In this document: piece after piece, positions 3,754-63,586 of the stretch
Numbering within the stretch: the first letter of the stretch is position 1
Layout: the number at the start of each line of letters is the position of its first letter
Assembly (NCBI GenBank): GCA_000004985.1
Contig: GG738851.1
DNA: 64,000 bases
Reading direction: 5' to 3' (one strand)
DNA from: Naegleria gruberi
Taxonomy: Eukaryota
Made by a program: the position numbers and the translations under genes
The notes under the pieces: generated by a model
The model's input: only the letters and a program-made list of their open reading frames with translations
Database searches by the model: none
What the model was told of the DNA's origin: nothing

Positions 3754-5496
3754 ATGGGAAAAAACTTTCGTAACAAAACATTGCCATCGGCCAATACCAG
3801 TCATTCGATGGCCTCGCCATTGCAAATCCCCTTTTCAGCTCGTACTTCAAATCAAAAGTCGCCAAAACATTATCTCCTTCCTAAACATTATCAAGAGATT
3901 GTCAAGTATTTTGTATCGAAGGAGAATACAAGTGATTTGGCTTTGATCTTGTTGAAAAGGTTATTCTCTCCTTCCGATTGGAAAATGTATTATTTTGATT
4001 ATAAAGAGTGGAATGAAAATGTTACAGAGTGTAGGAAAGATCTGAGAAAGATGATTCAAATGGGAACATTGCAATCACTCTTGAGAGGAAAGTATTTTGT
4101 GGAGGATTTGACTATAGTTCCTGTTGAACAGGTTGAGGAGGAGACACAAATTCCTATTCATGAGAGAGTGTTCGTGAGAAAGCCATACGTTCCGAGGAAG
4201 AAGGAAGAAGAAATAGTTGAGGAGGAACCAGAAACTAAAAAGAAAAAGAAGAGGAAGAATAAGAAGGTTGATCCAGAGGCTGAATTTGAATTGACTGCTG
4301 AGGAATTGGCGCATGATGGAACATTTGAAGGATTTGAAATTATGGGAGAGGAAGACAGACCACCTTTGGATGAAATTATCATGTTGAACGAAAGAAATTT
4401 GAAAAAGGATCCTAAAAAGGATAAAAAGGATAAAAAGAAGGTCACCAAACCAACATCTAAAAAACCTGAGGAAGAGGAGGAAGAAGTTTTCTTCTTTGAT
4501 GATGGAATTCCAGAAAAAGAAATTCCAGTCACTACAATTCATTTGGATTTTAATGCCATCAAGAAGATTTCAAGCTCTACCGAGCTCATTGATTGTGCAG
4601 AATTGGAATCTGTTGTACAAATATCTAAAAAGATGAATACAAAGGAAAATCAAACAACCAAAACAATATTCCAAGTAGTTGAAGGAGATATTTTGGAAGC
4701 AGCATTGGCCTTGAAGAAAAACTCAAAGGTCAATCCACTCGTGCTTGTCAGTGCAAGCCAAAATATCCCAGGTGGTTTATATGATAAGGGAGGAAATACA
4801 CAGGAAGAGGATATGTGCCGAAGAACTTCTCTAGCACTTTGCTCTGCTGATCCATATAGAATATCAGGTCGTACGTGGTTTTATCCATTGCCAGAGTTTG
4901 GAGGAATCTATGTAAACAATTGTCTCGTGATTAGAAAATCAAAATATGAAGGATATGCATTCTTGGAAAAGCCTACCAACATGTCAATGTTCTTATTGAG
5001 TCCTATAATTAATCCTCCAACAGAGAAGAAGAAATTAGTGGCAACAGAAAATTCTGGAGATGCAACTTCTGAGCCAGAATATGAATATTTCCTTCCTGCT
5101 AAACTCACAACCACAATGAAAAAGAAGATTGCCTCCTATTTGGAAGTTGCACTCAGTAAGGGACATGATGCTTTGGTACTGTCTGATTTTGGTTGTGTGA
5201 ATTCACATTCTAATCCTTCCTATCACATTGCCTCACTCTTTAAGGAAGTTCTAATGAGCGACTTGTTTAGAGACAAATTCAAGCATGTCTTATTTGCCAT
5301 TACTCTAGACACTGAACCAGACAGCAGATTGACCAGTATTATTGAAGATGTCGATGAAAGCTCAACAGTCGTCAGACAGGAAAGTTATGAAATTCAAAAG
5401 AAGAACAATCTCACCATCTTTTCTAAAATATTCAACAATAGTGAATCTGCACCAACTGTAGATGAACATTTCAAAAAGATCAAAGAATCATTGTAA
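3754..5496 (+). CDS. Macrodomain-fold protein of the bacterial-type PARG / DUF2263 family, with a long Lys/Glu-rich N-terminal extension
   Basis: The C-terminal half contains LVLVSASQNIPGGLYDKGGNTQEEDMCRRTSLALC. This fits the PARG signature GGG-x6-8-QEE as GG-x8-QEE, and the following EE-x-CR-S-L pattern is typical of DUF2263. The N-terminal part is low-complexity K/E-rich. Confidence 0.55.
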   Translation: MGKNFRNKTLPSANTSHSMASPLQIPFSARTSNQKSPKHYLLPKHYQEIVKYFVSKENTSDLALILLKRLFSPSDWKMYYFDYKEWNENVTECRKDLRKMIQMGTLQSLLRGKYFVEDLTIVPVEQVEEETQIPIHERVFVRKPYVPRKKEEEIVEEEPETKKKKKRKNKKVDPEAEFELTAEELAHDGTFEGFEIMGEEDRPPLDEIIMLNERNLKKDPKKDKKDKKKVTKPTSKKPEEEEEEVFFFDDGIPEKEIPVTTIHLDFNAIKKISSSTELIDCAELESVVQISKKMNTKENQTTKTIFQVVEGDILEAALALKKNSKVNPLVLVSASQNIPGGLYDKGGNTQEEDMCRRTSLALCSADPYRISGRTWFYPLPEFGGIYVNNCLVIRKSKYEGYAFLEKPTNMSMFLLSPIINPPTEKKKLVATENSGDATSEPEYEYFLPAKLTTTMKKKIASYLEVALSKGHDALVLSDFGCVNSHSNPSYHIASLFKEVLMSDLFRDKFKHVLFAITLDTEPDSRLTSIIEDVDESSTVVRQESYEIQKKNNLTIFSKIFNNSESAPTVDEHFKKIKESL

Positions 5497-5558
5497 AATA
5501 ATATCATCCATCATAGTAATTGATGACACACATGTAAAGAATCCTCACACATAAAAAA

Positions 5559-7868
5559 ATGTCTCACTATCTCAGGTCAACACCATTATTGTTGCCCTCT
5601 CTCAACAGCAAACCATCAACACTATTAAAACAATTGGTAGCCAAGGAGGATTCTGCAACATTATATCTTCATCCTCCGAATATTATTACCACAACAACAA
5701 CAGAGAGTGATGCATCCGAAACCCTTCTCGATGTTTACAAAATTAAACAAAAATTGGGTGAAGGATCTTTCGGTCAGGTTTATCTTGCAAAGATAAAATC
5801 GACAAAGGAAAGATTAGCACTCAAGAGAATTGTGACGAATTTGAGTGGAGATGAAACTGAGGATGAGACCGAAAAGATTATTTATGAAAATTTGCAGGAG
5901 TATTATACATTGCGTGATTTGAAAGATCATCCAGCCATTGTGAAGGTAAAGGACGTCTTTCTAATGAAGGACAAAGCATCACAACAGATTGGTCATGTGA
6001 GCTATTCTATGAAATTATATGAACATGGAAGTTTATTCGAATGGATTACTAAAAGAAAGGGAAGTAACAAGAAGATGGATTTTAGAATTTTAAAATCAAT
6101 CATGATTCAATTGTGTCTAGTATTGAAATTTATCCATCAAAAGGGTTTACTTCACAGGTGAGTATTAAAATTATAGAAAAATGGATGTTAATTTACTGTG
6201 TACAGAGATATTAAACCAGCCAATATCTTTATTGATTACTTGAAGACGGAAAAGACCTTCCTTCCAGAGGAATATTTCAAAGAGGAAGAATCTTCAATAG
6301 TTGTAATTTTGGGAGATTTTGGAACTGTTAGAAAGTACAATGAAGGATCTATGGTTCAAACTACAGTTGGATCCCAAATGTACATGTCACCTGAGATTTT
6401 ATATGGTGAAAATTATCAAGTGGATGCAGATGTTTGGTCTCTGGGAGCTTCTCTATTTGAACTTGCTACTTACAAGCCAAAACCAATAGCAATGATGCTC
6501 TACAAGAGAGAAGGTCCCACAATTAAAAAGAATTTGGAGGATGCTCTGCTCTTGAATAATGAATATATCAAGACAGAACAAGATTCTAATGATTGTTTGG
6601 AATTTATCAATTTAATAATGGACATGTTCACTCTGGAAGTTTCTAAAAGACCAACCATTGAAACCTTGCTCTCCTCTCCATGTTTAAAACCTCAATTAGA
6701 TAGAGTACTACTAATCACTTCCCAATACACCTCCCAAATGATTCAGGAAGAGAATGAGCTATTAGTGAAATTGGTAGAAGATTTGAAATACAATGTCACA
6801 TCAACTTCCTCTCAAGGATTGAAAACATTTATGAAAAAGAACCTTCTGGCAACCACAAAGGATAATGATGGCAAAAAGAATAATCTCTTACTTGTGGCAA
6901 GTTGGTGGAGTTCTAACTTGAGAATATTCCCGGTAGCTCCACAAAATGAAAATTCGCCTTTGGAAATATCTAATGTTCCCTACATATTGGAATTGAAATC
7001 AGATATAACCTGTGAACAAATGATGCCAGTAAGTGAGAGTGAGGTCATTCTTGGATTGCAATCTGGAGAAATTGTTAAAATTAGAAGAGAGGGCTCTCAT
7101 TCATTCAAGGAAATTTCCAGATTGAATGCACACAAGCATCGATTGAAATGCTTTAGACAACTCAATGATCAATATTTTGCTTCTGGTGCCTATAACAAAT
7201 CGGTAAAAATTTGGGATCTCACAAACTTGGAATGTGTTCAAACATTTAAACACGAAAGTGGACACGTCTTTGCGTTGGCTAGTACTAACTCATCAAGGAG
7301 TATACAAGAAACGTCCTTGTTCAGTGTTGGAGCAGATATGAGTATTTATGAATGGGATTTTGAAAAGTGTTTACAAAAGAGAGAAAAAGCTCACTCTGAT
7401 GAAATTTACTCCTGTCTCTACAATTCAAACAGTTCAATCCTCTTGACAGGATCTTTCAAGGAACTAAAAGGATGGGACAAGAGACAACATCAACCAATTA
7501 TCAACTTTTCACCTCATTCAAACTATATTAACAAAATTGTTGAAATTGAAAAGAGCTATGACGGACAGGAATTTAGAGATGGAAATCATTTCATTACATG
7601 CTCTAATGATGGATTTATCAAATTGTGGGATGTTAGAAAGTTACCAAGCAATAGCTCCACTTCATCTACCGACCAAGAATGCAAGTCGTTCAAAGTCAAC
7701 CTGGATGCTATCAAGACACTCCATGTTTATTCCAATACTATTTTCTATGGAACTAAGAGAGGTAGGATGGGAACACTTGATTTGAAAACTTTCACATCTA
7801 TCAAAACCTACAATGCCATTAAGGGAGTCGTTGGTGTAGTAGATGTTTCATCCATACAAATGTTGTGA
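5559..7868 (+). CDS. Ser/Thr protein kinase with C-terminal WD40 repeats; two exons joined across a 48-nt intron at 6158..6205
   Basis: The Gly loop is LGEGSFGQVY and the beta3 Lys lies in LALKRI. The catalytic loop LLHR|DIKPANIF is rebuilt only after removing the GTGAGT...TACAG intron, which is phase 2. DFG (ILGDFG), SPE, and the WD motifs SVKIWDL and GFIKLWDV are present. Confidence 0.8.
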
Positions 7869-7869
7869 A

Positions 7870-8877
7870 TTAACCACCAAAAGTCACAGTACTGAGAAGG
7901 AAAACCATCACTACAACTGAAATGGCAACGTAGAGGAGATTTCTTTTCATTATTCTAACAAAATCATGGTAATCCTTTGACATTTCAACAGGTTTTTTGA
8001 AAATCTTGAAAATTCTCAAATAATATATACACATCAATACATAGGGAACATCAGAAAATACCAATGCAACATCACGCAGAAATAACAAACGACCTAAATG
8101 ATCCAAACCTTGATCATGAATAACTTGCACAATATGAGTCAAACTAAAACTCAAAACAATCCAAAGCAAGTAATTCATTGCCTTAACCTTGCACTGCATT
8201 AAGGATCCATCCTGTTGAACAATCTCTGAAATGCTATTATTGAAAACTGATCGATTCCACTGTTTATCCAACAACATGCATGTAGTGAACAACATGACAC
8301 ATTCAGAAATGGTGAAATAGAACTGGTGCCAACTCAAACTATGAAAATCGTCATTGAAATAATTAAAGTGAGCTCCATATCCATAATAGACTCCAAACCA
8401 TCCGAGAATATAAATTGGAATGAGGGAGTAATTACAATTTCCACTCCAAATTAATTGAATTAAATTATTCAAACTCTGGTAAAATGAAATGACCATAAGA
8501 ATCGACACAAATACCAACCAAAGAGTCGTTCCTTCCACTTGATAATAGATATATTTGAAATTTCCTCTTGGATAAGGACCCTTAGCTCTTCCATCCCAAC
8601 AGTTACAAGAACATGTATTTCGCCATGTTGGATCATAGAAATCACTCTCCGATTCCAAAAGAGCATCATTGCATGCTGTACATGAGCCACCCTTAGTAAA
8701 TGGCTTAAACCACCCAAGACAATAGGGAACAATAAAATAAATAACATAAATACAGAGCATAATGATGCTAATTACTAGTAAGGTTCTCATCATGGCTATT
8801 AAGGAGGATTTTAAATTACTTGGCTGCTTATCGTGATGATGAGCAATTATCTCGTGTGAAGAATTTTCTGCTAGCAT
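7870..8877 (-). CDS. Hypothetical multi-pass membrane protein with a Cys-rich extracellular loop
   Basis: A 335-aa ORF with at least 5 hydrophobic helices and a cysteine cluster (CTACND...CSCNCWDG). Confidence 0.45.
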   Translation of the reverse strand: MLAENSSHEIIAHHHDKQPSNLKSSLIAMMRTLLVISIIMLCIYVIYFIVPYCLGWFKPFTKGGSCTACNDALLESESDFYDPTWRNTCSCNCWDGRAKGPYPRGNFKYIYYQVEGTTLWLVFVSILMVISFYQSLNNLIQLIWSGNCNYSLIPIYILGWFGVYYGYGAHFNYFNDDFHSLSWHQFYFTISECVMLFTTCMLLDKQWNRSVFNNSISEIVQQDGSLMQCKVKAMNYLLWIVLSFSLTHIVQVIHDQGLDHLGRLLFLRDVALVFSDVPYVLMCIYYLRIFKIFKKPVEMSKDYHDFVRIMKRNLLYVAISVVVMVFLLSTVTFGG

Positions 8878-8930
8878 TTGGAGGTAATTTTTTTATAGGT
8901 CATTATGCAATAATCAAGAACCAAGTTTAT

Positions 8931-10304
8931 TTAAAAGTTAATAGAGGCAGAACATCCCTTAGTAAGTAAGACAATGATTGGATAAACTGGCAATTGGAGT
9001 CCTTGTAAGGAAAATCTTTGTTGTGCTCCTTGCCTTATGGTGAGGGTTTTTGTGTTGCAATCAACTTCACAAAATATTTCATTAGAGTCAACAAAGTCCA
9101 ATCCTCGCAGAGTATTATTGAGAGTCTTGTCAGAACAAGAAAAGACATATCTATTACTTGTGAGAACGTCATAGTTGTGGTTGTTGAATGGAGATTTAAA
9201 ACATGTAAAATCCTTATTATCAAATACAGACTTTTGACAAACACCAATACCAATCCATTTACAAATATTTTTCAAGTCAACTCTCCACTCTACAACTCCT
9301 TCACTAATCTTCATTGAACTAATTACTACAGAATGTCCAGAATATGAGGTTTTGGTAAATAAATTTGCTTCTTTTGTAACATTATCTCTGTCATAGTAAA
9401 ATTCATCAGGAATAATATCTTGGATTGGATCTAAATGGCGATTGAGAAGGTAAGTAGTTGATGGAATATTAGCATTCACTCTTCCCAAATTTTCAATTGA
9501 ATCCAAAATTACTTTAAGCTTGTGTTTGTCACTTTCCAAACAAAAGTTGTTCAATTGTTCTGCACTACTAAATCTCAAATTGTTTTCCATCTTGTCATAG
9601 GTGCTATAAATTTTCTTTTGTAACAATATCTTGTTTCTAATCAGATCAATCTTTGACATTTCTTCAATTTTATCAATATTAATAAGAGCTTCCTTTTCAA
9701 TTACTTGCTTCATTTCTAAAATCTCTGTAATCAAGTTAATTCTTTCCACGGCCATGTCATTTAATGACTTTTTCAAGTATTCTCTTCTACTATTGGTCTT
9801 GTTAATTACTTCATCGAAGAGTTCATCAATTAAATCCATCTCAGCAATTTTTCGAATTTCAATTTGATGTAGTGTTTCATCCAATTTTGCACTCCCACCA
9901 ATCAAGTTATCAAATTGCAAAACTCTCTTTTGCAAGGTTTCCAAATCGACTCGGAATTTAATTTTCTCTTCATTGTAAATTTGATCAATCAAGAAACAAT
10001 CATGCAATTTATGCATCTCCAAACCACAAGCAGAACAAATAACTTGTTGACAATTTTTACAATAAGTATTGATCGGACAAGCATGAACATGACAAATTTC
10101 ATGATGATTCAAAATTAAATTATTAATTGGTAATGATGATGAATTATTATGCATCAATTCTTCCACAACGTGATCGGGATGTTTCTTTGCATGTCTCTTT
10201 CCATCACCAGAACAATAAAACAATCCACAATCATTGCAACGATATTTAGCCTCCACATGTTCACTCAAATCATCCAAACAAACCGAACAACTTTCTACTC
10301 GCAT
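8931..10304 (-). CDS. Zinc-finger (B-box-like) coiled-coil protein, TRIM-like without a RING domain
   Basis: The N-terminal C/H-rich modules are CSVCLDD...CNDCGLFYC...H..H and CHVHACPINTYCKNCQQVICSACGLEMH. A long heptad-rich coiled coil follows, then a beta-rich C-terminal domain. Confidence 0.5.
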   Translation of the reverse strand: MRVESCSVCLDDLSEHVEAKYRCNDCGLFYCSGDGKRHAKKHPDHVVEELMHNNSSSLPINNLILNHHEICHVHACPINTYCKNCQQVICSACGLEMHKLHDCFLIDQIYNEEKIKFRVDLETLQKRVLQFDNLIGGSAKLDETLHQIEIRKIAEMDLIDELFDEVINKTNSRREYLKKSLNDMAVERINLITEILEMKQVIEKEALINIDKIEEMSKIDLIRNKILLQKKIYSTYDKMENNLRFSSAEQLNNFCLESDKHKLKVILDSIENLGRVNANIPSTTYLLNRHLDPIQDIIPDEFYYDRDNVTKEANLFTKTSYSGHSVVISSMKISEGVVEWRVDLKNICKWIGIGVCQKSVFDNKDFTCFKSPFNNHNYDVLTSNRYVFSCSDKTLNNTLRGLDFVDSNEIFCEVDCNTKTLTIRQGAQQRFSLQGLQLPVYPIIVLLTKGCSASINF

Positions 10305-10509
10305 TTTTTACTATTAGAAACGTTCTAACTTCTTCTTGCGCTTTCATCTTTACACCAAGTTCTTCTTAATCTTCTTTTTCAAATTGCAAGTTTCATTTAA
10401 AAGCCTTAAATCATCTGTTGCACATGTTGAATTTATTTTTTTTTGAAAATCGTAAATAACAAAATGGCGGGAAGTTGCAACGTCAAGTTCATCTCAAAGA
10501 TTAAAAAAA

Positions 10510-12219
10510 ATGTTTGACAAGCCAAGTAATCTCTGCTCTCAGTCTTTTGATATTGAAAAACAAGTTTGCTTTTCCAACTCCTCTGATACTGATGTGGTCG
10601 ATTTGTTTTGGATTGATTATTCGGGTGCTGAGGTTTTTATTAGTACCATTGCTCCAAAGCAACAAGTTGGACAGAAAACCTTTGCTACTCATCCCTTCCT
10701 GATGAGAAGTTTATTGAGCAGAAAGATTGTGGGCTTGTTTGTGATTGATGAGCAATTGCCCGATCGATCAACATTGAAATATGGTGAAAATAATTATAAT
10801 ACAAGTGGCAACAGTAAAAGTAGTGGTGGAATGATTCCTACACCTGGTGATGCTCCACCTCGTTTGTTTGAAAAGATTACTTATAGAAATAGTATTGTAG
10901 GAAGTCAAGATCAATATTATGGTTTGAAATCAGCAACTGGAACTTGGCCTGCAGAGCTACATGTAAAGAATAGAACTGGACATAATTTGGAGTCTTATTG
11001 GATTGATTTTGAAGGTAATTTGAGAAGTTATGGAATTTTGGATTCTGGAAAGAATTTTGATAGTATGAGTGGACATGGTCATATCTTTCTTTTCAAAACT
11101 CCTGATGGTTCCTATCAGAAGATAATTACTGCCTCATCTGAAAAACCTTCTCAATTCCTCGATCCTGATGAAATTGAAATTACTGCCTCAGTGATAGATT
11201 CACCTTCAGAAACTAGTTGTCACTCTATTCTTGAGAAGCATATTCAAGGAAGGTGTGGACGTGCACTCAAGTTTTTCACTGAACCTCACATTGATCGGAT
11301 CATTTCAGAAATTGAAACCAAACTCAAACAAGAAGGAAAACGATTCATTGATGAAGACTTTTTCCCAGGAGATAATTGGAAGAGAGCTAGTGATTATTTC
11401 AAAAATCAAGCCAGTATTTTCAAAGGTGATATTTCTCCAAAAGCACCAATACAAGGAGGAGCAGGTGATTGTTGGTTAATCCAATCAATGAGTGGAGCAG
11501 CCACCTTACCAGACAAGATTAAGGAAGTATTTTGCAAGTGTGAACATATTGATCCATCATTGGGATTGTTTGTCTTGTCTTTCCATTCAACAGATGGTTC
11601 AAAAATATTCATTCTCTTGGATGATTACTTTCAATTTACATCAACCAATTTTAAATGTTCAAGGAGTAGTACAGTTGGAGAATTGTGGGTTCCGTTAATT
11701 GAGAAGGCATTTGCAAAACTGTGTGGAAGCTTTGAATCCCTTCATCCAGTTGTTGGAAATCATGGTATTAATCCTGCTGAAGTGTTGTTGTACTTATTAA
11801 GCGGCAAAAATGGTAAAAACATTCAATGGTACTCTGCTGAGGGGAAAACTATAATCTCTCAGGGAAAATTCTATCCACTCGTGGAGAGTTTATTGGACAG
11901 TAAAAAGAGCGTACCAGTCTGTACCAGTAATGCTAATACCAAGGAGGGCTATGTTGATGAGTATGGAATTGTTCACTATCATGGATATTCCATGTTGGGT
12001 TATAGAAAATATCCTCAACACGGCATCAATCTTCTCCACATAAGAAATACATGGTCCAAACAGGAATGGAATGGTTTGTGGTCTGATAATTGTGTACAAT
12101 GGGCCAAATATCCTGATATTGCCAGTGAACTGAGAAGTGTTTCAGAAGATGGATGCTTTTGGATATCATATGATGATTTTGTAAATCACTTTTGTGTACT
12201 TTGGTGGAATGAATTTTAA
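10510..12219 (+). CDS. Calpain-like cysteine protease with two N-terminal VHL beta-domain-like repeats
   Basis: The catalytic Cys motif is QGGAGDCWLIQSMSGAA, the His lies in VHYHGYSMLGY and the Asn in IRNTWS. Upstream are two repeats, SNSSDTDVVDLFWIDYSGAEV...THPFLMRS and KNRTGHNLESYWIDFEGNL...GHGHIFLFKT. Both fit the VHL beta pattern N.S...V.L.W.DF.G....Y......H.WLFR. Confidence 0.75.
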   Translation: MFDKPSNLCSQSFDIEKQVCFSNSSDTDVVDLFWIDYSGAEVFISTIAPKQQVGQKTFATHPFLMRSLLSRKIVGLFVIDEQLPDRSTLKYGENNYNTSGNSKSSGGMIPTPGDAPPRLFEKITYRNSIVGSQDQYYGLKSATGTWPAELHVKNRTGHNLESYWIDFEGNLRSYGILDSGKNFDSMSGHGHIFLFKTPDGSYQKIITASSEKPSQFLDPDEIEITASVIDSPSETSCHSILEKHIQGRCGRALKFFTEPHIDRIISEIETKLKQEGKRFIDEDFFPGDNWKRASDYFKNQASIFKGDISPKAPIQGGAGDCWLIQSMSGAATLPDKIKEVFCKCEHIDPSLGLFVLSFHSTDGSKIFILLDDYFQFTSTNFKCSRSSTVGELWVPLIEKAFAKLCGSFESLHPVVGNHGINPAEVLLYLLSGKNGKNIQWYSAEGKTIISQGKFYPLVESLLDSKKSVPVCTSNANTKEGYVDEYGIVHYHGYSMLGYRKYPQHGINLLHIRNTWSKQEWNGLWSDNCVQWAKYPDIASELRSVSEDGCFWISYDDFVNHFCVLWWNEF

Positions 12220-28788: not shown

Positions 28789-31700
28789 ATGACCACCAAG
28801 GTACAATTAGTAAGGGATGCTTCTCTGGCTTTTCAACAAAAAAAGTACGATGAATGTTTGAAAATAATTTCGCACGATGAACATCATGAATCATCATTGC
28901 CTTGCTCGGAAGAGTTGGGGATGGACATCAAGTTAGGAACCATTGTGGGAATGTGTCATTATAACAATGCTGTTATTCAAAAAGAAATGGCAAAGGAATT
29001 GTTTGATAAGGCTTTGATTCAATTTGATAAGGTCATTTCTCAATATAGGGAATATGAAAATACTGTACATCAAGATCAAGGAAATGTCAAATCAATTGTT
29101 GAAAATAACATTGGATTGGAGGTTTTTATATCTACAACAAAGGTTAATTATTTGGCAGGTCTTTGTCATTTATATAGTAACAGGTACAAGGATGCTATAC
29201 CTTATTTTAGTAGTGCTGCTCTTATGGCCTCAACCTTACAGAGTAATATTGGATATGTGGCCAATAAGGATCATGCCAAATCTTTCCTTAAAGAGTCACC
29301 AAAGTACTATTTAAATCGAGGAATCTGCTACAATGAGTGTAAAAATAATGAGTTGGCAGAGAGGGATCTTGTCAAATATGTGGCACTAATTGAAACATCT
29401 GATTTGAGTCCAGACACTCAAGCACCTCTCTTATTTGTTGCGTTTACTAGTTTAGCAAGCACAAAATTAAACAAGAATCAACAAGAGGATGCAATCAAGT
29501 ATTTCAATAAGGCCATCGATTCTTTCAACGTAATGGAACCGGATGCCCAACAGGTACATTTTGAAAACTGTGTTAAGGCTAAACTCAAAAGAGCCACAAC
29601 ACTTCAAAAGTATATTAGTTACCATGTGTATAACTGTAAGGAAGATGCAAACCTTATGAAAGTAATTGAAAGTTATAGAAAAATGGCCTCTGATGATTTG
29701 GAAACCGCAAGAAAATACAAGAGACTCGAGTTTTATTACTTGTACCAATATGTAAAAATGATAGTGATGTTCTGCAAACATGTGGAAGGACTCATTGAAA
29801 AAGATGAATTGGTACCTCTCTATCAAGATGCTGCAGACAAGTTGCAAGAATGCATTTCAATTCAACCAAAGAATGCAAAATTGTACGGGGACTTGGCATT
29901 GTGTAAGAGCAAGATTGGGAAAGAAAAATTGGAAGAAATTTTAGATTTGTACAATAAGAGTTTTGAATTAACCAATGGGGAACCTACGGATAAGGTATCT
30001 AAGCAAAAGTTGGCCAGGATTTATTTCGAAAGATCTGTCATTTATTTCAAATTATCCAATACTGATAAGGCCAAACAAGATTTGGATAGAGCTATTCGTT
30101 TGAATCCATACTTTTCAGATGCTTACTACAATAGAGGTTTTTTATTGAAGGATTCCGAAGATGATATTGAACAAACTTTGGACGATTTGGGAGCAACCTG
30201 TGAAATGAACCTTGAGGACACTGAGTGTGCATTTCTTACGTAAGTTGATTGGTATTGTTCAGTTTGATTGTAATTATATATAGTGCCATTATTTTAGCAA
30301 AACAAGAAAACAAGGAAGGTAGTCGTTCCATTGTCGAAGAATTCATCAAGTTTAACCCTAATGATTCCAATTTGAAAGATCTTTTATTAGCTCTTAATAA
30401 CGAGGGCAGTTTGGATGCATTTGAATCCTTACCTAAATTCAGAGAATCCCACAAGAAGAACAAACTCTGGACACCTAATAGAAAAACAAAACCAAGTCTA
30501 GACAGAGCATCAATTAGAAATAGAGTTACAAGTGCCAAACTCGACGAACAAGACACTGATGATGGCTATTATTGTGATCCAACCTTCCCAGCAGTGTCAA
30601 AATCAATCTACGGAACAGAGGATAGTGATTTACCATCTGAATTGACTTGGTACAGAACTTGGGACTTGTGTTTCCTCAGAGAAGAGTCCCAACTTTTTGT
30701 TGATGGTACAAGCAATACTGATATCATGCAAGGTGGTATAGGTGATTGTTGGTTACTTTCTGCATTTTCAATTGTTGCTGACTATCCAGATATCATGAGT
30801 AAGATTATATTGGAGTCAAAATCAGATCCAGATAACGGAAAGTATGTCTTTTCCATTTTCGGAAAAGAAGGCCCCACAGAAGTAGTTATTGACAATAGAT
30901 TGCCATGTTTTTCTGATTCGGGAAGTCTTGCATTCTCCAGGAGTGGAACCTCAAACGAAATGTGGATTTCCTTATTAGAGAAGGCATATGCTGCGTATTA
31001 TGGAAGCTACCAAGCACTTCAAAGTGGTTACATGAGGGATGCCCTTGTTAGTTTAACAGGTGGAGTTCCTTTCACTCTTGATATCAGTGTAGAAAACAAG
31101 GAGGAGGTATGGGAAATCTTAAAGACTATTAAAAAGAAGAGCACTGATCCCTCATCATACTGCTTAATGGGATGTAGATCTGACAAGGCACCAGCCAGAA
31201 CTGGTATTCAAACTCACCATGCCTATGCAATTCTGGATTGTTTCGACTGTCCTCTTGAAATGACCAATGGAAAGAGAACTCGTCTTGTCAAACTTAAGAA
31301 TCCATGGGGTTATGGTGGTGAATTAGAATCTGGAGATTACTCTGATGATAGTAAGTGGTGGACTAAGGAGCTCAGGAAATATGTTGGACATGAATCAAAA
31401 ATTGATGGCATTTTCTTCTTGACTTTGGGGGCACTTGTTAAATATTATACGCAAATTCAAGGAGTAAGGATTTTTGATGAGGAGCATTGGAGTATAGCAC
31501 GTTTTGTGGATGAATTCAAGCAAAAACCTGGACATGACTTGGATGACTGGGGCCTAGATATTTGTTCTTTCTCGTCTCATTATGTTATTCACAACACCCA
31601 CGAAGACAACAAGCTAGTAATTGAACTTTCTCAAAAAGACACCAGATTTACAAGAGATCAAAAAGAAGAGTTCAAATGTGTTGCCATTTATGTATTTAAA

Positions 31701-31946
31701 TATCCTGAAAGTCAATTCAATGGCGAAGAAAGCACCAGGTTAGCAACAATTGGTGAAGAGAATGAAACTGTCGTTCAGGGTATCTACGACGGTTGTTACA
31801 GTGAAACAAGCATTGAGACAACACTACCTGTTGGCCATTATGTTGCAATTCCAGCTGAGCTTTACTCTAAGACACCAACAGAGAAACTTTCACTCAAAAT
31901 TATTTCAAGAAAACCTGTCACTATTGTTAGATTGCCTGTTCAATAA
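28789..31946 (+). CDS. TPR-repeat / calpain fusion protein; exons at 28789..30239 and 30284..31946, with a 44-nt intron at 30240..30283
   Basis: The 484-aa TPR-like ORF ends in a stop created by the GTAAGT donor. Splicing to the TATATAG acceptor joins it in frame (...ECAFL-T-AIILAKQENKEG...) to the calpain ORF. The catalytic triad motifs are QGGIGDCWLLSAFSIVA, HHAYAILDC and KNPWG. Confidence 0.7.
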
Positions 31947-31979
31947 ATATTGTCTACATCATTGATGTATAAATGAATT

Positions 31980-32800
31980 AAAATCCATTACTGGTTGTCA
32001 ATTTCAAAAGACCCATATCACCAACATATTTCGCTCCTTCATTACCAATATTGTTGGTCCGAATATTGAGGAATAATAACTGTTTAGTTCACTAATGTAT
32101 TTTGCACCTTTAGAACTATCATTGTATTATTGATTAAGATTAGTTAATTACTTTTTTTCACAGATAAGTTCCTTCGTCACCAATCCTATTTGAACAAATA
32201 TTAAGCTCAGTTACTTGTTTCAATATACTAATATATTTAGCTCCTTACTTGCAAAGATTATTAAAACTAATATTAAGGTTAGTTAATTGCTTCATTTCAG
32301 TGAGATAGTTAGCTCTGTCTTTATTAATATGATTTCAGCTAATATCGAGATTAATCAATTGTTTCAGGTTAGTAAGAAGCTCAACTCCGTCATCAATACT
32401 ATATCCACAAATAAAAAGTTCAGTCAATTGATTCATGCTGCTGATAGATTTAGCTCCTATACAACCATCAGGATTACAAGCAATATATTAAGACGCGGTA
32501 AAGATTTCATTTCGCTGCTGAAATATTAAAGTCCTTCAGCACCTATATAGTTATTATCAAGTATAGTTAAACGGATCAATTTGCTTATAAATTGAGCTCC
32601 TTCATTAACGATATCATTGAATCCAATATCAAGACTAATCTATTTATCCATTTTGATTACCAATTTAGCTCCTTTTGCTCCAATCGTATTTCCAATAGAA
32701 AGTTGCATATTTGTGAAATGAAACATCGTAAAGAAACTAATGCACAATCCATTATCAATAAATTTAACATTATCCTAATGAAAAATTAAAATTTCATAAA
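31980..32800 (-). pseudogene. Degenerate F-box-like/LRR gene remnant, inverted relative to the intact family member at 32948
   Basis: Minus-strand translation gives repeated LRR units of the same family (IG.EGAKYISEL / N.LT.LNIS) every 72 nt. These are interrupted by many stops and frameshifts. The N-terminal-like remnant lies nearest 32800. Confidence 0.5.
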
Positions 32801-32947: not shown

Positions 32948-34504
32948 ATGGTAAATTCTGCAAGGGAGCATCAAGAAGGTTTATTTTCCAACGACGTTTG
33001 TTTTGAAATATTGTCATTTCTTGATGGTTGGACTATTATTCGAAACTGCGCTTTAATTTCTAAACAGTGGTTTGAAATTATTAGAAATTATTCGAAACTT
33101 GATCTTGAGGTAATGAGTAAACTTTCCACGGAAAGAATCACCATGTTATCCGAAAGTCAATTCTTGAATAGAATTATTGGCTTCAAAGTTGGAAAGTATG
33201 CAGCTTCCGAATTTGTATTATTCGAAAGCTCAAACCTTGAACAATTATGGGAAACTATTGGTTCAATGTCTCAATTGACTAAACTTGATGTTGGCAAGAC
33301 TGGATTACATACTTTTCCCATTTCAATTTTACCTAATTTGGAAAATTTAACAGAATTAAACTTGACATTTTTGGAAATATTTGACCAAGGAGCAAAAATA
33401 ATAAGTCAACGATTGAAATTCATAACCAAACTCAGCGTCGATTATTGTGGAATTGGAATTGAAGGAGTACAAGCAATTGGAAATATGAAACAATTGACTT
33501 TTTTGAATATTAGTGAAAATGAAATGAGAAATGAAGAGATTGAATTGATTGGAACACTTGATCAACTCAAATATTTGAGTATTCGAAATATTACACGTGA
33601 GAATAACAGTGTTGATGATTATCTAGATTTTAATTCTCTGAAAAATCTGAAATTGTTGACCTACCTCAATATTGGTGAAAATAGAATTTCAGATGAGATT
33701 GGTTTACAATTTTTGAGAGAAATGAAACAATTGACTCATCTCAATGTTGCAAACATGGAAATTGGAAGTATTGGGGCTAAAATAATCAGTGAAATGACAC
33801 ATTTAGTTAAACTAAATATTGGACGAAATGATATTGGAAGAACTGGAATTGATTATATAGGTGAAATGAAACAATTGACCTCATTGAATGTTCAAAACTG
33901 CAATTTAATGGAATGTAAATTTTTATGTGGAATGAAACAATTACAATATTTGAATATTAGCGAAAATACAATTAGAAATGAAGGAGTGGATTTAATTTGT
34001 AAAGAACTATCTCAATTGAAATTTCTGAACATTTCTGAAATATTGTCAAGACCCTATCAATTTAGAAATGTACTCCCCATAAAATTGGAGAATTTACCTC
34101 GCCTTAATCAATTAACTGAGCTCGATCTTAGTAGTGATCGAGTGAATGAAGAAAGTTTGATTTTTCTTCTTGAATTGAAATGTTTAACCTCACTGAATGT
34201 CAGAAGAAATAGCATTACTTGTAATTGTGCTAAAATCATTAGTGGAATGAGCCAATTAACCAAACTGAATATCAGTGAGACACAAGTTGATGAATTGGTG
34301 ATGGAATATATTTGTGGAATGAAAGAGTTGCGAGTGTTGTATATGCAAAAGAATTATTTAGAAAATGATTCAGAGGTTGTTGACTTGATTGAGAAAATGG
34401 AAAGTTTGACTGAACTTGATATTAGTGATTGTTATATCAGTATTGAAAATGAAACCAAATTAAGAGAAATTAAGAAATTAAGGAAGCTTGTATTATTTGC
34501 TTAA
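32948..34504 (+). CDS. F-box-like / leucine-rich repeat protein (RNI-like LRR family)
   Basis: The N-terminus FSNDVCFEILSFLDGWTIIRNCALISKQWFEII is F-box-like. It is followed by about 15 LRRs of the L..LN(I/V)..N.IG.EG type. Confidence 0.75.
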   Translation: MVNSAREHQEGLFSNDVCFEILSFLDGWTIIRNCALISKQWFEIIRNYSKLDLEVMSKLSTERITMLSESQFLNRIIGFKVGKYAASEFVLFESSNLEQLWETIGSMSQLTKLDVGKTGLHTFPISILPNLENLTELNLTFLEIFDQGAKIISQRLKFITKLSVDYCGIGIEGVQAIGNMKQLTFLNISENEMRNEEIELIGTLDQLKYLSIRNITRENNSVDDYLDFNSLKNLKLLTYLNIGENRISDEIGLQFLREMKQLTHLNVANMEIGSIGAKIISEMTHLVKLNIGRNDIGRTGIDYIGEMKQLTSLNVQNCNLMECKFLCGMKQLQYLNISENTIRNEGVDLICKELSQLKFLNISEILSRPYQFRNVLPIKLENLPRLNQLTELDLSSDRVNEESLIFLLELKCLTSLNVRRNSITCNCAKIISGMSQLTKLNISETQVDELVMEYICGMKELRVLYMQKNYLENDSEVVDLIEKMESLTELDISDCYISIENETKLREIKKLRKLVLFA

Positions 34505-56946: not shown

Positions 56947-58767
56947 TTAGTCAGTTACTACTTTATTCCTTTGGTTAAGCAATGCTATGCAACAGCGGTA
57001 AAGCAAAGCCAATCGTTCCTCAGAATCAAGAGCACAATTTTGAAAATCCAAACAATCAGGATATTTCTCGTAGAACGTTTTGCAATGTTCTTCAAATGGC
57101 ACACCATTGATTTGGATGCATTTGATAGCAAATTCAAATGCATCCCATTTTTCTTTAGTGATTCTGTTTGAATCAGTAATTATATCTGTGCATAAATCCT
57201 CTATTGTTGAAGCTCCCAAAATTGAAGGTTTGAAACATTTGACAGCAGTTTCTAGGATTCTTTCAAATTCCGAACTATTAGCATACCAATAAATAAATAA
57301 TGTTCTAATAGTCGACCTAACATGCTCTGCATAATAACTTATATCTCTATTTTTCTCATTCAATTTTTCCATCAACTTTTCCAAATCAAATGGCCCATAT
57401 TCCTCATAGAAATCCTTAAAATAATACATAATATTGCAATTGTAGGTTTTAAAAAACGATTCCACAAAATGTGAAGGTCCTACAAGTCCTTCAAAATATT
57501 CTAGCTCGTAAGGATCAAAATCGTTCACCAATTTGATTAATTTCATTGGATTTGCCTGTCTAAAAGTATAAGTATGCAAAATTCTCTTAATATCTGTCAT
57601 ATTTATCAATCCATGTTTGTATAACTCTTCTATTAACTCATAATCATTGACATTTCTGCATATTAAAAAAAGAATATTCTCTGAGAATAGTTCCATCTTG
57701 TCCACTTTCACAATCTCACAATATTTTCTTACAAATTCAAAGTTAAGATATGATGATGATTCACTTAAGTGGACAAGTCTGTTATTATGTCTATAACCAA
57801 AATTCTTCGTGCAACTGTCAAATATTTTGACGGACAAACCAGGATAAATAATTTCCATACAATTAAACCAACATTCCAATCCCAGCAGAGAACTTGCAAT
57901 ATGATGGAGAGGTATTTGAAGTTTGGATATGTCATTTGATTTTTCTACATTTCCATCAATGGAAATATATTCTTGGATGAATTTCAATAATTTTTCTTCG
58001 TCTTTGTGAATGACAATGTAATTAGCCAGCGAGTAATCATCCATTATCGGTTTGAATTTGTTGATAAATTCGATCGAATCATCGTATGTGAGTTCAGAAA
58101 TAGCAACATTGAATATGGATTTTGAGAAACGTTTCCAATAGTCTTGAGCTCTCAATCCTTCCATCACTCTGCCATCTTTTGTGAATTTCTTGGCATGCGA
58201 CAAGAAATATTGGGCTATAACTCCCGTGTGTATATATTCTACAACACTGGGTTGAAAATCTTTTGAGATTTCTTCTAATCCTTTGCTCATCATTAATGAA
58301 AAATTAGCATTCAAAGCAGACGGAATCAATTTCTTAAATCTCGTTCCAAAAACTGTTGATCTTTCCATTTCATCCTCGTCTCTATCCATAAACTCCATAA
58401 ACGAATGCTTGTTCACCTTCTTTTCATTCAAAATCTGAGTAGTGTGAAACTTTCTCGTCACATCCGCAAGATTCCTATAAATTTTGTATTGTGTAGAGTT
58501 TTTAGCACAAGATTCCATCATCTTTTCATAATAATCAATTTTTAATAGCAACCAATTGGATAGCAGTGTTTTCCAGACCATTTCAAACCGATCCAATTGA
58601 TACCAATTTTTACAAGTCAACACACAGGATAGACCGTCCTTCAAACCAATATATTCCATCACGTGAAAGAGAGTGTCCGGGTGAAGTTCATGTTGTGGCA
58701 TTTTTTTTTTCTGTTGTAAATGATTTCTTCCACTGGTCAACCCAAAACCAATGCAAATTGTCTGCAT
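56947..58767 (-). CDS. Hypothetical F-box-like domain protein
   Basis: The N-terminus PDTLFHVMEYIGLKDGLSCVLTCKNWYQL fits the F-box pattern. The remainder is helical and unassigned. Confidence 0.5.
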   Translation of the reverse strand: MQTICIGFGLTSGRNHLQQKKKMPQHELHPDTLFHVMEYIGLKDGLSCVLTCKNWYQLDRFEMVWKTLLSNWLLLKIDYYEKMMESCAKNSTQYKIYRNLADVTRKFHTTQILNEKKVNKHSFMEFMDRDEDEMERSTVFGTRFKKLIPSALNANFSLMMSKGLEEISKDFQPSVVEYIHTGVIAQYFLSHAKKFTKDGRVMEGLRAQDYWKRFSKSIFNVAISELTYDDSIEFINKFKPIMDDYSLANYIVIHKDEEKLLKFIQEYISIDGNVEKSNDISKLQIPLHHIASSLLGLECWFNCMEIIYPGLSVKIFDSCTKNFGYRHNNRLVHLSESSSYLNFEFVRKYCEIVKVDKMELFSENILFLICRNVNDYELIEELYKHGLINMTDIKRILHTYTFRQANPMKLIKLVNDFDPYELEYFEGLVGPSHFVESFFKTYNCNIMYYFKDFYEEYGPFDLEKLMEKLNEKNRDISYYAEHVRSTIRTLFIYWYANSSEFERILETAVKCFKPSILGASTIEDLCTDIITDSNRITKEKWDAFEFAIKCIQINGVPFEEHCKTFYEKYPDCLDFQNCALDSEERLALLYRCCIALLNQRNKVVTD

Positions 58768-58777
58768 CTAAAATTGC

Positions 58778-60121
58778 TTATAATTGAGTTGGTGGCGAGG
58801 AGGTCTCTGGAGTGAAGAGAGTATTTATAAAGTTATTCCTATTACTGGGAAGAGAATTTGAAAGCAGTTCTTCATTGCTGATGATTGAAGAGGGCGAGTT
58901 GAGTGTTGAAAGATAATAGGGCGATATTGGTGTTGTTGATTGCTTTGATTGATTTGCCAGTTTGAGGACACCACTATTGGTAGAAGATTTTGGTTCCTTG
59001 TAGGTTGAAACTGTGGTTATAGTATCAGTTTCTTGTTGTTTCTTTTTCATTTCGAATGAAATATTGTCAAGTGGTCCAAATGCAAACGTTACCAGAAGGC
59101 ACAATATTCCAATAGATACTTTGTGGATAATAGAGGAAGCAAGAAGGATTTTGGCTGGAGAGAATATAATTTTCAACATTAGTATTATATTTGAAATAAT
59201 ATTCAAGAGTGAAGTTAATAATTGTCCTATTGAAAGTGCAATCAATTTACGACAAGCTGTTTTTCTCTCCTTAGAGATGGGTCTATTTTCTGGCAAGAGT
59301 TTCCTTACCAGAGCCCCTACGCTTACTACATTCAAAATTGTGAAATATAACATTCCTAATGAAACAAATAATCCTAATGTAGAACTGACAGTCTCGGCCT
59401 GTTCACTTATCAAGATGGTCATTGCTGTTTCTGCATATCTTAGCATGAATAGTGTGCATACAGTTACAATAAAGAGCAGCAGTAAAATGTTTAGAATAAT
59501 CACAAGAGAAATACTCGAAATTTTGACAAACTTTCCCCAAGTTTGATTCATTCGATTTTTCCTCATCCAAGATTGTGTCTTATTGAAATAAATATTGTAA
59601 ATTATCTTTGCTATGGTAGCCTGACTGTTCATACACAGAGTTACAGAAATCATCATGCCAGACGTTTCAAAGGCATGAAAAAATGTCCAAAACCAACCCT
59701 GCATTGCAGTGATTAATCCAACCGTGTATGTTATTCCAAAACATTGAAAAACTATTTGATTAAGACAAATAAGTATCAATAGAATGTACAACAATCTCTT
59801 ATTAAATACCATATGCTTCCACTTTGATACAAGTAGAAATCCCATCGGCAATAGAAGAACCATAAAGAAGAGAAGACCTGTAATATGCACTCCGAGAATT
59901 CCATAAATACAATCGTCGATTGATGATGGTTGTATCATTACGGAGCTATTGAATCCATATTGTGATGAATTAAAGAATGAAGAAGATAATGATGATGATG
60001 GCGGTTGTGGCAAATTGATAGAAATCAACATTAAATTTCTTTTTAAAATTCTTTTTAATTTGATTTGTACTAATATTGACAAAAAACTTACAGAGATATT
60101 GACTGGTAGTGAAGACCTCAA
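58778..60121 (-). CDS. Seven-transmembrane receptor-like protein with a Ser/Thr-rich C-terminal tail
   Basis: Seven hydrophobic helices lie between residues about 70 and 350, followed by a long S/T/P-rich tail. The true start may be the internal Met of MIQPSSIDD. Confidence 0.5.
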   Translation of the reverse strand: MRSSLPVNISVSFLSILVQIKLKRILKRNLMLISINLPQPPSSSLSSSFFNSSQYGFNSSVMIQPSSIDDCIYGILGVHITGLLFFMVLLLPMGFLLVSKWKHMVFNKRLLYILLILICLNQIVFQCFGITYTVGLITAMQGWFWTFFHAFETSGMMISVTLCMNSQATIAKIIYNIYFNKTQSWMRKNRMNQTWGKFVKISSISLVIILNILLLLFIVTVCTLFMLRYAETAMTILISEQAETVSSTLGLFVSLGMLYFTILNVVSVGALVRKLLPENRPISKERKTACRKLIALSIGQLLTSLLNIISNIILMLKIIFSPAKILLASSIIHKVSIGILCLLVTFAFGPLDNISFEMKKKQQETDTITTVSTYKEPKSSTNSGVLKLANQSKQSTTPISPYYLSTLNSPSSIISNEELLSNSLPSNRNNFINTLFTPETSSPPTQL

Positions 60122-60151
60122 ATTATAAGAAAAATAATATCAAAAAGCACA

Positions 60152-61768: not shown

Positions 61769-63586
61769 ATGTTGATGATCCTATTGGTGGCCTTGATGGT
61801 CATTGTTATTTCTCTGATGATCAACATTGCCTTCAAACTTTATAATAATTATAAGAAGGGTATGTTGTTTTTTCTTTTCAAAATTTAATGATGATTAATT
61901 TTACCAAAATCGATTGGTTACCACAGTTGCTCATATTCCTGGTACTTTTCAATTGACATTTACTCCGTGGAGAATTCCTTTAATTTCACCTGTTTGGTAT
62001 TTGGGAAATGTTGGTACAATTGTTGATGATGTTAGAAAGTATGGTGATGCTGAGAATAAAATCATGAGAATTACTTATCCTGATGCTAATATGGTGCTAG
62101 TTTCTGATCCAGACATGTTGAAAGAGTTCTACCTGACCAAGGGAAATACATTTGACAAGTCGAGTTATGTCTATGACATGTTCAATGTTTATGGAGAGAG
62201 TATCTTGTCAGCTAAAGATACCGAAACATGGAGAAAGCATTTCAAGTAAGTTTTACAATTTTTTACAACAATTTGTGTAATTAACTGATTATAGAGTTGT
62301 TTCACCTGCATTCTCTCCAAAGAATTTGCAATACATGTGTAAGGTTTGCATTGACAGTTCAAAATTATTATTCAACAGATGGGAATCAAAATTGAAAGGA
62401 AAGGAATATTTCATATTGGATTTAGGTGATTTCCCAGATGTTACATTGGATGTTCTTGGAACTAGTGCTTTTGGTATTGATTTTGGCACTTTTTCAGGTG
62501 AACACAACACATCAGAATCAAAATTCAGAAGAGCAATGGAAAAGGTAATTTCACATCAATTCCTAATTAGAAGATTCTTTTTAGAGGTTCCATGGCTTTG
62601 CAAGTTTTTGGAGAGTGTTACTGGAGCAGGAGAAGCAACCAAGTTTTGTGGAGATTATTTGGATAAGGTCATTAAGGATAGAACAAAATTGGTAGAGAGC
62701 TATACTTCATCAACAACTGACGATGAGAAAAAGCATGATGTGTTTACATTGTTAGTGGAGGCTAACATTCTTGACAAGCAATTGACAGATGGAGAATTGA
62801 AGAGTAATGCCTTGATTTTCTCGTAAGTATTATTAATATTTGTATATTTATCAAATACGTATAGAGCTGCTGGACATGAAGTAAGTATCAATTAGATTTC
62901 ACATTCTCATTTTAAATACCATAATAATAGACAACTGCAACCTTACTAAAGTGGACCTTTTATGAAATCTCTAAAAGACCTGAAGTTCAAAACAAAATGT
63001 ATCAAGAAATTGTGGAAAAAATTGGTGATCGTCCAATAGAATACGAAGATTTTGGTAAGATGGACTATGTTTACTCTACCATTCTAGAGGTGTTGAGATT
63101 TAACCCTCCTGTCGTTTGGGTCTCTCGAGAATGTAACAAGAGCACAACTATTGGAAAGTATCACATTCCAAAAGGAACCAGAGTAAATGCTCTCATCAAA
63201 CAAGCTCACAGTAATGAAAAGAATTGGACCAGGCCAGAAGAATTCAATCCAGAACGTCTCTTCAACAATCCAGAGCTCAGAGACAAGGTTCAACAGGATA
63301 TGTCATTCATTGGATTTTCTATGGGAAATCGTAAATGTAAGTGTTTAGATTATCATATTTTTTTACTAATTTAAACAATCCAAACAAATGGACAAATACC
63401 ACATCTCTAGGTATTGGATATAAATTTGCTTTATTAGAAGCAATGATGCTTATTTGCACATTCTTAAAGAGCTATGAATTTAAATTGGAAAATGATGAAA
63501 CTATTGATCCAGTCCTACCAAAGAAAGGTATCGTAAATGTTCCAGGTGATAACATGAGAATCAGAGTCTTCCACAGAACCAAATAA
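61769..63586 (+). CDS. Cytochrome P450 monooxygenase with six exons, at 61769..61859, 61927..62245, 62295..62822, 62865..62880, 62931..63336 and 63411..63586
   Basis: All five introns have GTAAGT or GTATGT donors and YAG acceptors, and each restores the frame. The lengths are 67, 49, 42, 50 and 74 nt. The I-helix motif AAGHETT is assembled from exon 4 (16 nt) plus exon 5. The K-helix reads EVLRFNPP. The heme-binding motif FSMGNRKC|IGYKFALLE spans intron 5. The N-terminal membrane anchor is MLMILLVALMVIVISLMI. Confidence 0.8.

Follow-up and report, generated by a model that had tools for sequence, protein, structure and literature searches.

Do two adjacent open reading frames of Naegleria gruberi encode two proteins or one? 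The first frame opens with an ATG at position 28789, extends through 30243 on the plus strand, and encodes a TPR protein of 484 residues. The second, in a different frame, spans 30249 to 31946 and encodes a calpain. A gap of 5 nt separates the two. Within the window (the 64,000-nucleotide stretch of contig GG738851.1 analyzed here), sequence and comparison with relatives point to a single two-exon gene at 28789..31946, in which removal of one 44-nt intron would yield a TPR-calpain polypeptide. The probability of this reading is put at roughly 0.95.

The product of that gene, 1037 residues long, is already on record. It matches XP_002681002.1 residue for residue (also EFC48258.1; UniProt D2V3V2; UniRef100_D2V3V2), which the databases name the N. 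gruberi "calpain family cysteine protease-containing protein". The gene model read from the nucleotide letters therefore equals the public annotation, and the D2V3V2 record, with its identical 1037 residues and domain layout, describes the same gene. The 484-residue ORF by itself has no entry in the protein collection searched. The domain layout, too, has been published. Rawlings (2015; PMC4631099) reports TPR domains in the calpain homologues of Naegleria, and lists D2V3V2_NAEGR as "TPR 8 ~ TPR 11 ~ pC2" and its paralogue D2VVS6_NAEGR as "TPR 1 ~ TPR 11 ~ pC2 ~ Calpain III". Zhao et al. (2012; PMC3563603) name TPR as one of the domains that occur together with CysPc, and count five calpain variants in N. 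gruberi. An earlier note on this DNA, made from the sequence alone, had called the fusion unconventional: the TPR-calpain layout stands, but it had already been described for D2V3V2 (Rawlings 2015, PMC4631099).

The argument for one gene begins at the junction. The TAA that ends the first ORF (30241-30243) sits within the sequence GTAAGT (30240-30245), just as the earlier note had observed. Excision from this donor through the TATATAG acceptor that ends at 30283 restores the frame: the split codon AC/T specifies Thr; the product reads ...ECAFLT/AIILAKQENKEG; and the spliced coding sequence of 3114 nt runs without interruption through 1037 codons to its stop. A putative branch site, TTGAT, lies about 16 nt 5' of the AG, and the intron has 25% GC against 37% in the exons. 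Translation of the unspliced mRNA would stop at the 30241-30243 TAA. The earlier proposal that this 44-nt splice joins the TPR and calpain ORFs through ...ECAFL-T- is thus borne out, both by the restored frame and by the identity of the product with XP_002681002.1. Its companion claim, that only splicing to TATATAG keeps the frame, is not. A second AG, ending at 30322 (GGTAG), defines an 83-nt intron whose excision preserves the frame as well, with the loss of 13 residues, AIILAKQENKEGS, so 30283 is not the sole frame-keeping acceptor. The sequence TTTTAG (30292..30297) is an out-of-frame acceptor; with its 58-nt intron, translation would soon meet a stop. Either of these AGs, ending at 30322 or 30297, could be a candidate minor alternative acceptor. 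Homology supports 30283 as the favored one, and it is from sequence together with comparison that we infer splicing at 30239/30284. The resulting features are collected in Table 1.

Table 1. Predicted features of the TPR-calpain gene in the window, and tandem ORFs on two contigs from uncultured relatives
Feature	Position	Strand	Content or evidence
Exon 1	28789..30239	+	Codons 1-483 and the first 2 bases of codon 484; most of the TPR superhelix
U2-type spliceosomal intron, phase 2, 44 nt, GT-AG	30240..30283	+	GTAAGT...TATATAG; sequence, and homologous introns in L001 and L002
Exon 2	30284..31946	+	Last base of codon 484 to the TAA stop; end of the TPR superhelix, linker, calpain core, C2-like domain
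Last TPR helices, residues 485-530	30285..30422	+	AlphaFold2 helices; TPR motif conserved in five homologues
Linker, residues 531-579	30423..30569	+	Lys/Ser/Arg-rich, predicted unstructured; AlphaFold2, alignment
Calpain catalytic core (Peptidase_C2 / CysPc), residues 580-876	30570..31460	+	Pfam PF00648, 2.4e-65, 221 bits
Catalytic triad codons	Cys639 30747-30749; His796 31218-31220; Asn823 31299-31301	+	
Divergent C2-like (Calpain_III) beta-sandwich, residues 922-1012	31596..31868	+	Pfam PF01067, AlphaFold2
L001 tandem ORFs	TPR 6001-7749; calpain 7754-9481		
L002 tandem ORFs	TPR 4264-5838; calpain 5880-7568		

What does the intron interrupt? Five Pfam TPR profiles score above their gathering cutoffs in this protein: TPR_2 (51.9 bits; cutoff 27), TPR_1 (48.5; 27.8), TPR_17 (48.1; 24.4), TPR_8 (39.1; 25.7), and TPR_12 (32.6; 30.1). 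Matches are placed at residues 174-245 (TPR_12), 345-377 (TPR_19), and 409-441 (TPR_1/TPR_2). An AlphaFold2 model, built from a three-sequence alignment, is entirely alpha-helical from residue 1 to about 530, with about 25 predicted helices and pLDDT mostly between 70 and 90. Foldseek comparison with the PDB returned TPR superhelices as the top matches, at E values of about 1e-10: SPINDLY, OGT, subunits of the APC/C, and designed CTPRs. Near the junction, helices are predicted at residues 478-490, 494-507, and 512-522 (pLDDT about 81-85), the first of which crosses the exon junction with pLDDT of about 85. Because this helix spans the junction and two more helical hairpins come after it, the intron falls within the TPR domain and not at its edge; the superhelix is predicted to run about 45 residues into exon 2.

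Sequence conservation bears on the same point. Residues beyond the junction form a TPR motif, ...A......E.........(D/N)PN(N/D), conserved in five homologues. The residues that flank the junction are EDTECAFLT/AIILAKQENKEGSRSIVEEFIKFNPND in the window protein and KDTTALIEL/AVLLASNGQVEEGTKRLNQTLECDPNN in the paralogue D2VVS6. Past the TPR region, AlphaFold2 places a short helix at 527-530 and then no secondary structure, with pLDDT below 50 from residue 539; the linker at 531-579 shows little conservation across the five aligned proteins.

Homologues were identified through exhaustive HMMER searching. A first homologue search with the full 1037-residue query returned mainly bacterial TPR proteins and missed even the protein's own cluster; word-index searches, with the calpain half or the five-sequence alignment, found only the self-cluster along with distant animal and fungal calpains, and no orthologue from N. 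fowleri or N. lovaniensis. Among the homologues, the N. gruberi paralogue D2VVS6 (XP_002671835.1; NAEGRDRAFT_52656; 1113 residues) aligns with residues 49-1014 in a single unbroken stretch that crosses the junction. A second TPR-calpain homologue comes from Willaertia magna (KAL9645185.1; 1150 residues). Its gene (L003:3001-6453) is one uninterrupted ORF of 3453 nt, without an intron, that translates exactly to the 1150 residues. This single ORF documents a TPR-calpain polypeptide with no need to assume splicing.

Two further HMMER matches are ORFs that span only the N-terminal half of the protein, and come from metagenomic or SRA assemblies: contigs L001 and L002 (sources Logan SRR29240419 and JGI 3300002220), both uncultured and heterolobosean-like. 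Each contig carries tandem TPR and calpain ORFs (Table 1). In L002 the TPR ORF stops at a TAA inside GTAAGT, as in the window gene, and excision of a 41-nt GT..AG intron (5835-5875) brings the frame back; L001 has a 61-nt intron, GTATGT...AATAG (7689-7749), with the same effect. The spliced products, of 1139 residues (L001) and at least 1088 residues (L002), lack internal stops. Prokaryote-style gene calling has split each of these TPR-calpains into two "proteins" in public collections.

All four relatives (D2VVS6, KAL9645185.1, and the L001 and L002 products) share with the window protein the full-length layout, the catalytic triad, and the TPR motif at the junction. Their identity to the window protein is 31-36% (32-36% for L001 and L002 alone); between D2VVS6 and the L001 and L002 products it rises to 44-50%. 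The L001 and L002 products therefore lie nearer to D2VVS6, and the window gene is the more divergent paralogue. In the five-protein alignment, the introns of the window gene, L001, and L002 fall in the same codon and the same phase (2). Since the position is common to the window gene and to two relatives of the other paralogue, the intron may be old, and would then probably predate the paralogue duplication. The earlier conclusion that the TPR and calpain ORFs form one gene thus draws support from the D2VVS6 alignment, the L001 and L002 introns, and the uninterrupted W. magna ORF.

A much closer sequence, metagenome contig L004 (ENA ERZ929261), is 98% identical to window positions 29778..32460 and represents an N. 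gruberi-like allele or strain. Both splice sites are unchanged. Substitutions are scattered through the gene; the eight within 29778-31946, one of them in the intron, are too few for inference on selection. Indels number just two, of 26 nt and 14 nt, and both fall past the stop codon.

Intron retention is the common mode of alternative splicing outside animals. Could regulated retention, alongside the spliced mRNA, give a free 484-residue TPR protein, possibly one that vies with the full-length protease for partners? The in-frame stop directly after the exon, in both the window gene and L002, would serve such an arrangement. However, a TAA arises automatically in any phase-2 intron that begins GTAAGT, and so is no evidence of design. 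Moreover, L001 has the donor GTATGT, after which the frame stays open as far as a TAG at the acceptor; W. magna has an intronless homologue; and a product cut off inside a TPR helix may be unstable. Regulated retention is quite unlikely on this evidence. A more elaborate scheme, in which the intron is old and its retention yields a free TPR scaffold that would modulate the tethered protease, making TPR-calpains a Heterolobosea-specific calpain subfamily with its own splicing switch, is highly improbable.

If instead the locus held two separate genes, a 484-residue TPR protein would end at the 30241 TAA and an independent calpain would lie downstream. The ORFs are indeed separate when read mechanically, and prokaryote-style callers split such ORFs in metagenomic assemblies (P0122, P0129, P0137). 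The calpain, however, would need a start. In its frame the nearest upstream stop is the TGA at 30246, and the first ATG comes only at 30726, which puts it 147 codons beyond the acceptor and just 7 short of the catalytic Cys; a run of 147 stop-free codons has a chance of about 1e-5 at the base composition of the window. The Peptidase_C2 match starts at residue 580, 52 residues upstream of the Met encoded at 30726. With no earlier ATG, and with the protease domain already under way, an independent calpain gene would have no usable start: initiation at 30726 would cost 52 residues of Peptidase_C2. The earlier note had likewise found no ATG with a plausible N-terminus for the calpain ORF, and the first one indeed lies inside the protease domain. 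Against separate genes there is also the spacing of only 5 nt between the ORFs; the sequence right after the acceptor, which completes the TPR motif conserved in five homologues; the continuous ORF of the W. magna homologue; and the public annotation, which merges both ORFs. Two genes at this locus are hardly credible.

Use of the AG ending at 30322 as the main acceptor, to give a 1024-residue protein without AIILAKQENKEGS, has next to no chance, even though the 83-nt intron keeps the frame: the 13 deleted residues correspond in the alignment to a TPR helix conserved among the four homologues compared, and lie within a confidently predicted helix; the first AG past the putative branch site ends at 30283; GGTAG has no preceding pyrimidine- or AT-rich tract; other candidate introns in the window measure 42-50 nt; and the annotated protein uses 30283.

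The single two-exon gene, spliced at 30283, would encode a cytosolic-looking multidomain protease with its predicted active site intact. The Peptidase_C2 match, at 221 bits against a cutoff of 23.8, covers profile positions 1-294 of 297 and assigns the protein to the calpains (MEROPS family C2). Also present, as the earlier note had reported, are all of the triad motifs: GDCW (Cys639), HHAYAILDC (His796), and KNPWG (Asn823). All motifs and coordinates given in that note proved right. The triad is invariant across alignments of three and of five homologous proteins, and its motifs align with those of calpain-5, calpain-3, and calpain-9. The nearest solved core is that of calpain-5 (6p3q; E = 2e-34); calpain-3, calpain-9, and calpain-1 are also among the nearest.

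Beyond the core, the Calpain_III profile (PF01067) scores 19.2-20.4 bits on the window protein, just below its cutoff of 21. Both Calpain_III and Peptidase_C2 are matched by five of five family members, with a best E value for Calpain_III of 1.1e-7. AlphaFold2 places beta strands at residues 916-1034, at low confidence; its model of the calpain half (pLDDT about 25) was not used, and the low confidence there reflects an alignment of only three sequences. A C2-like domain probably spans about residues 890-1037. No EF-hand family appears among the Pfam matches at E <= 1, and the protein ends after the C2-like domain. The absence of a detected EF-hand domain makes this a non-classical calpain.

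Is the protease controlled by calcium? By motif mapping, most acidic ligand positions would be kept: D630, E709, D838, and D858 correspond to D106, E185, D309, and D331 of the mu-calpain core. The counterpart of mu-calpain E333 would be Ile860, and that of its partner, R104, would be Asn628. Calcium control of this calpain is uncertain.

Known calpains offer several points of comparison. Classical calpains (CAPN1/2-like) have a C-terminal PEF domain, which the window protein lacks. With non-classical animal calpains such as calpain-5 and calpain-7 it shares a CysPc core with the Cys/His/Asn triad, a probable C2-like domain or domains after the core, and the lack of a penta-EF-hand. Calpain-7 (MIT ~ pC2 ~ Calpain III) also carries an N-terminal protein-interaction module; in the window protein this place is taken by a TPR superhelix of about 530 residues, not by MIT domains. 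However, identity of the core to non-classical animal calpains is only about 30-35%. TPR repeats N-terminal to CysPc also occur in the Ectocarpus TPR-C2-TML-CysPc calpain (Zhao et al. 2012, PMC3563603), as in the Naegleria protein. The Ectocarpus protein is membrane-anchored and Dek1-like, with transmembrane segments, whereas the Naegleria protein has no membrane-related Pfam domain.

These features suggest a non-classical calpain that would consist of four parts: a TPR superhelix of about 530 residues; a linker of about 50, predicted to be disordered; a CysPc core with an intact triad; and a divergent C2-like domain. TPR superhelices generally function in protein-protein docking. The superhelix might therefore be a docking platform for partners or substrates of a tethered cytosolic protease, with the flexible linker allowing the protease to reach whatever is docked. 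Alternatively, the TPR scaffold could localize the protease at a particular site, or hold it in check.

How much of this is new? The public annotation already contains the gene model, and the TPR-calpain layout of D2V3V2 has been published. To these the present analysis adds the intron position shared with L001 and L002; the absence of the intron from the W. magna homologue; the predicted extension of the TPR domain across the intron, to about residue 530; and the probable C2-like domain at the C-terminus. That the TPR ~ CysPc ~ C2-like layout is kept in Willaertia and in two uncultured relatives is a small comparative detail on a catalogued architecture. Beyond quality control, namely that a reader of the sequence alone recovered the correct two-exon N. 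gruberi gene model, the importance is small, and the gene-model result makes no open question testable.

The window is AT-rich (34% GC) and gene-dense, with long ORFs under the standard code. Ciliate-type reassignment of stop codons was considered and dropped, since ORFs of 450-775 codons without internal stops occur across the window under the standard table. Intron lengths were compared with those of other candidates within the window: further candidate GT..AG introns, of 42-50 nt, lie at 6158-6205, 62246-62294, 62823-62864, and 62881-62930, with the same donor and YAG acceptors, and the 44-nt length falls in their range. The sequence GTAAGT is under-represented, with 19 copies on both strands of the window where base composition predicts about 45. 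Such scarcity would fit a compact genome in which stray donor sites are selected against.

Other long ORFs in the window also lie close together on one strand, 10-40 nt apart: 60139..56947 (-), 10307..7870 (-), and 3754..7868 (+). This suggests further intron-joined genes. A clear short intron was seen only in the plus-strand pair (6158-6205; GTGAGT...TGTACAG; 48 nt); a scan restricted by donor sequence found no junction in the minus-strand pairs.

Downstream of the TPR-calpain gene, at 32948..34504 (+), lies an ORF for a 518-residue leucine-rich-repeat protein (LRR_8; 4e-23). It has in addition a weak N-terminal F-box-like match (4e-4), under the cutoff for that family.

The earlier note had counted the TPR fusion as the second calpain in the window, and the other one is real. 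It is encoded by the ORF at 10510..12219 (+), 569 residues long, in which Pfam places a VHL beta domain (residues 9-68; 37.5 bits; cutoff 21) before a Peptidase_C2 domain at 289-562 (9.4e-42). This VHL-beta ~ calpain layout is unusual.
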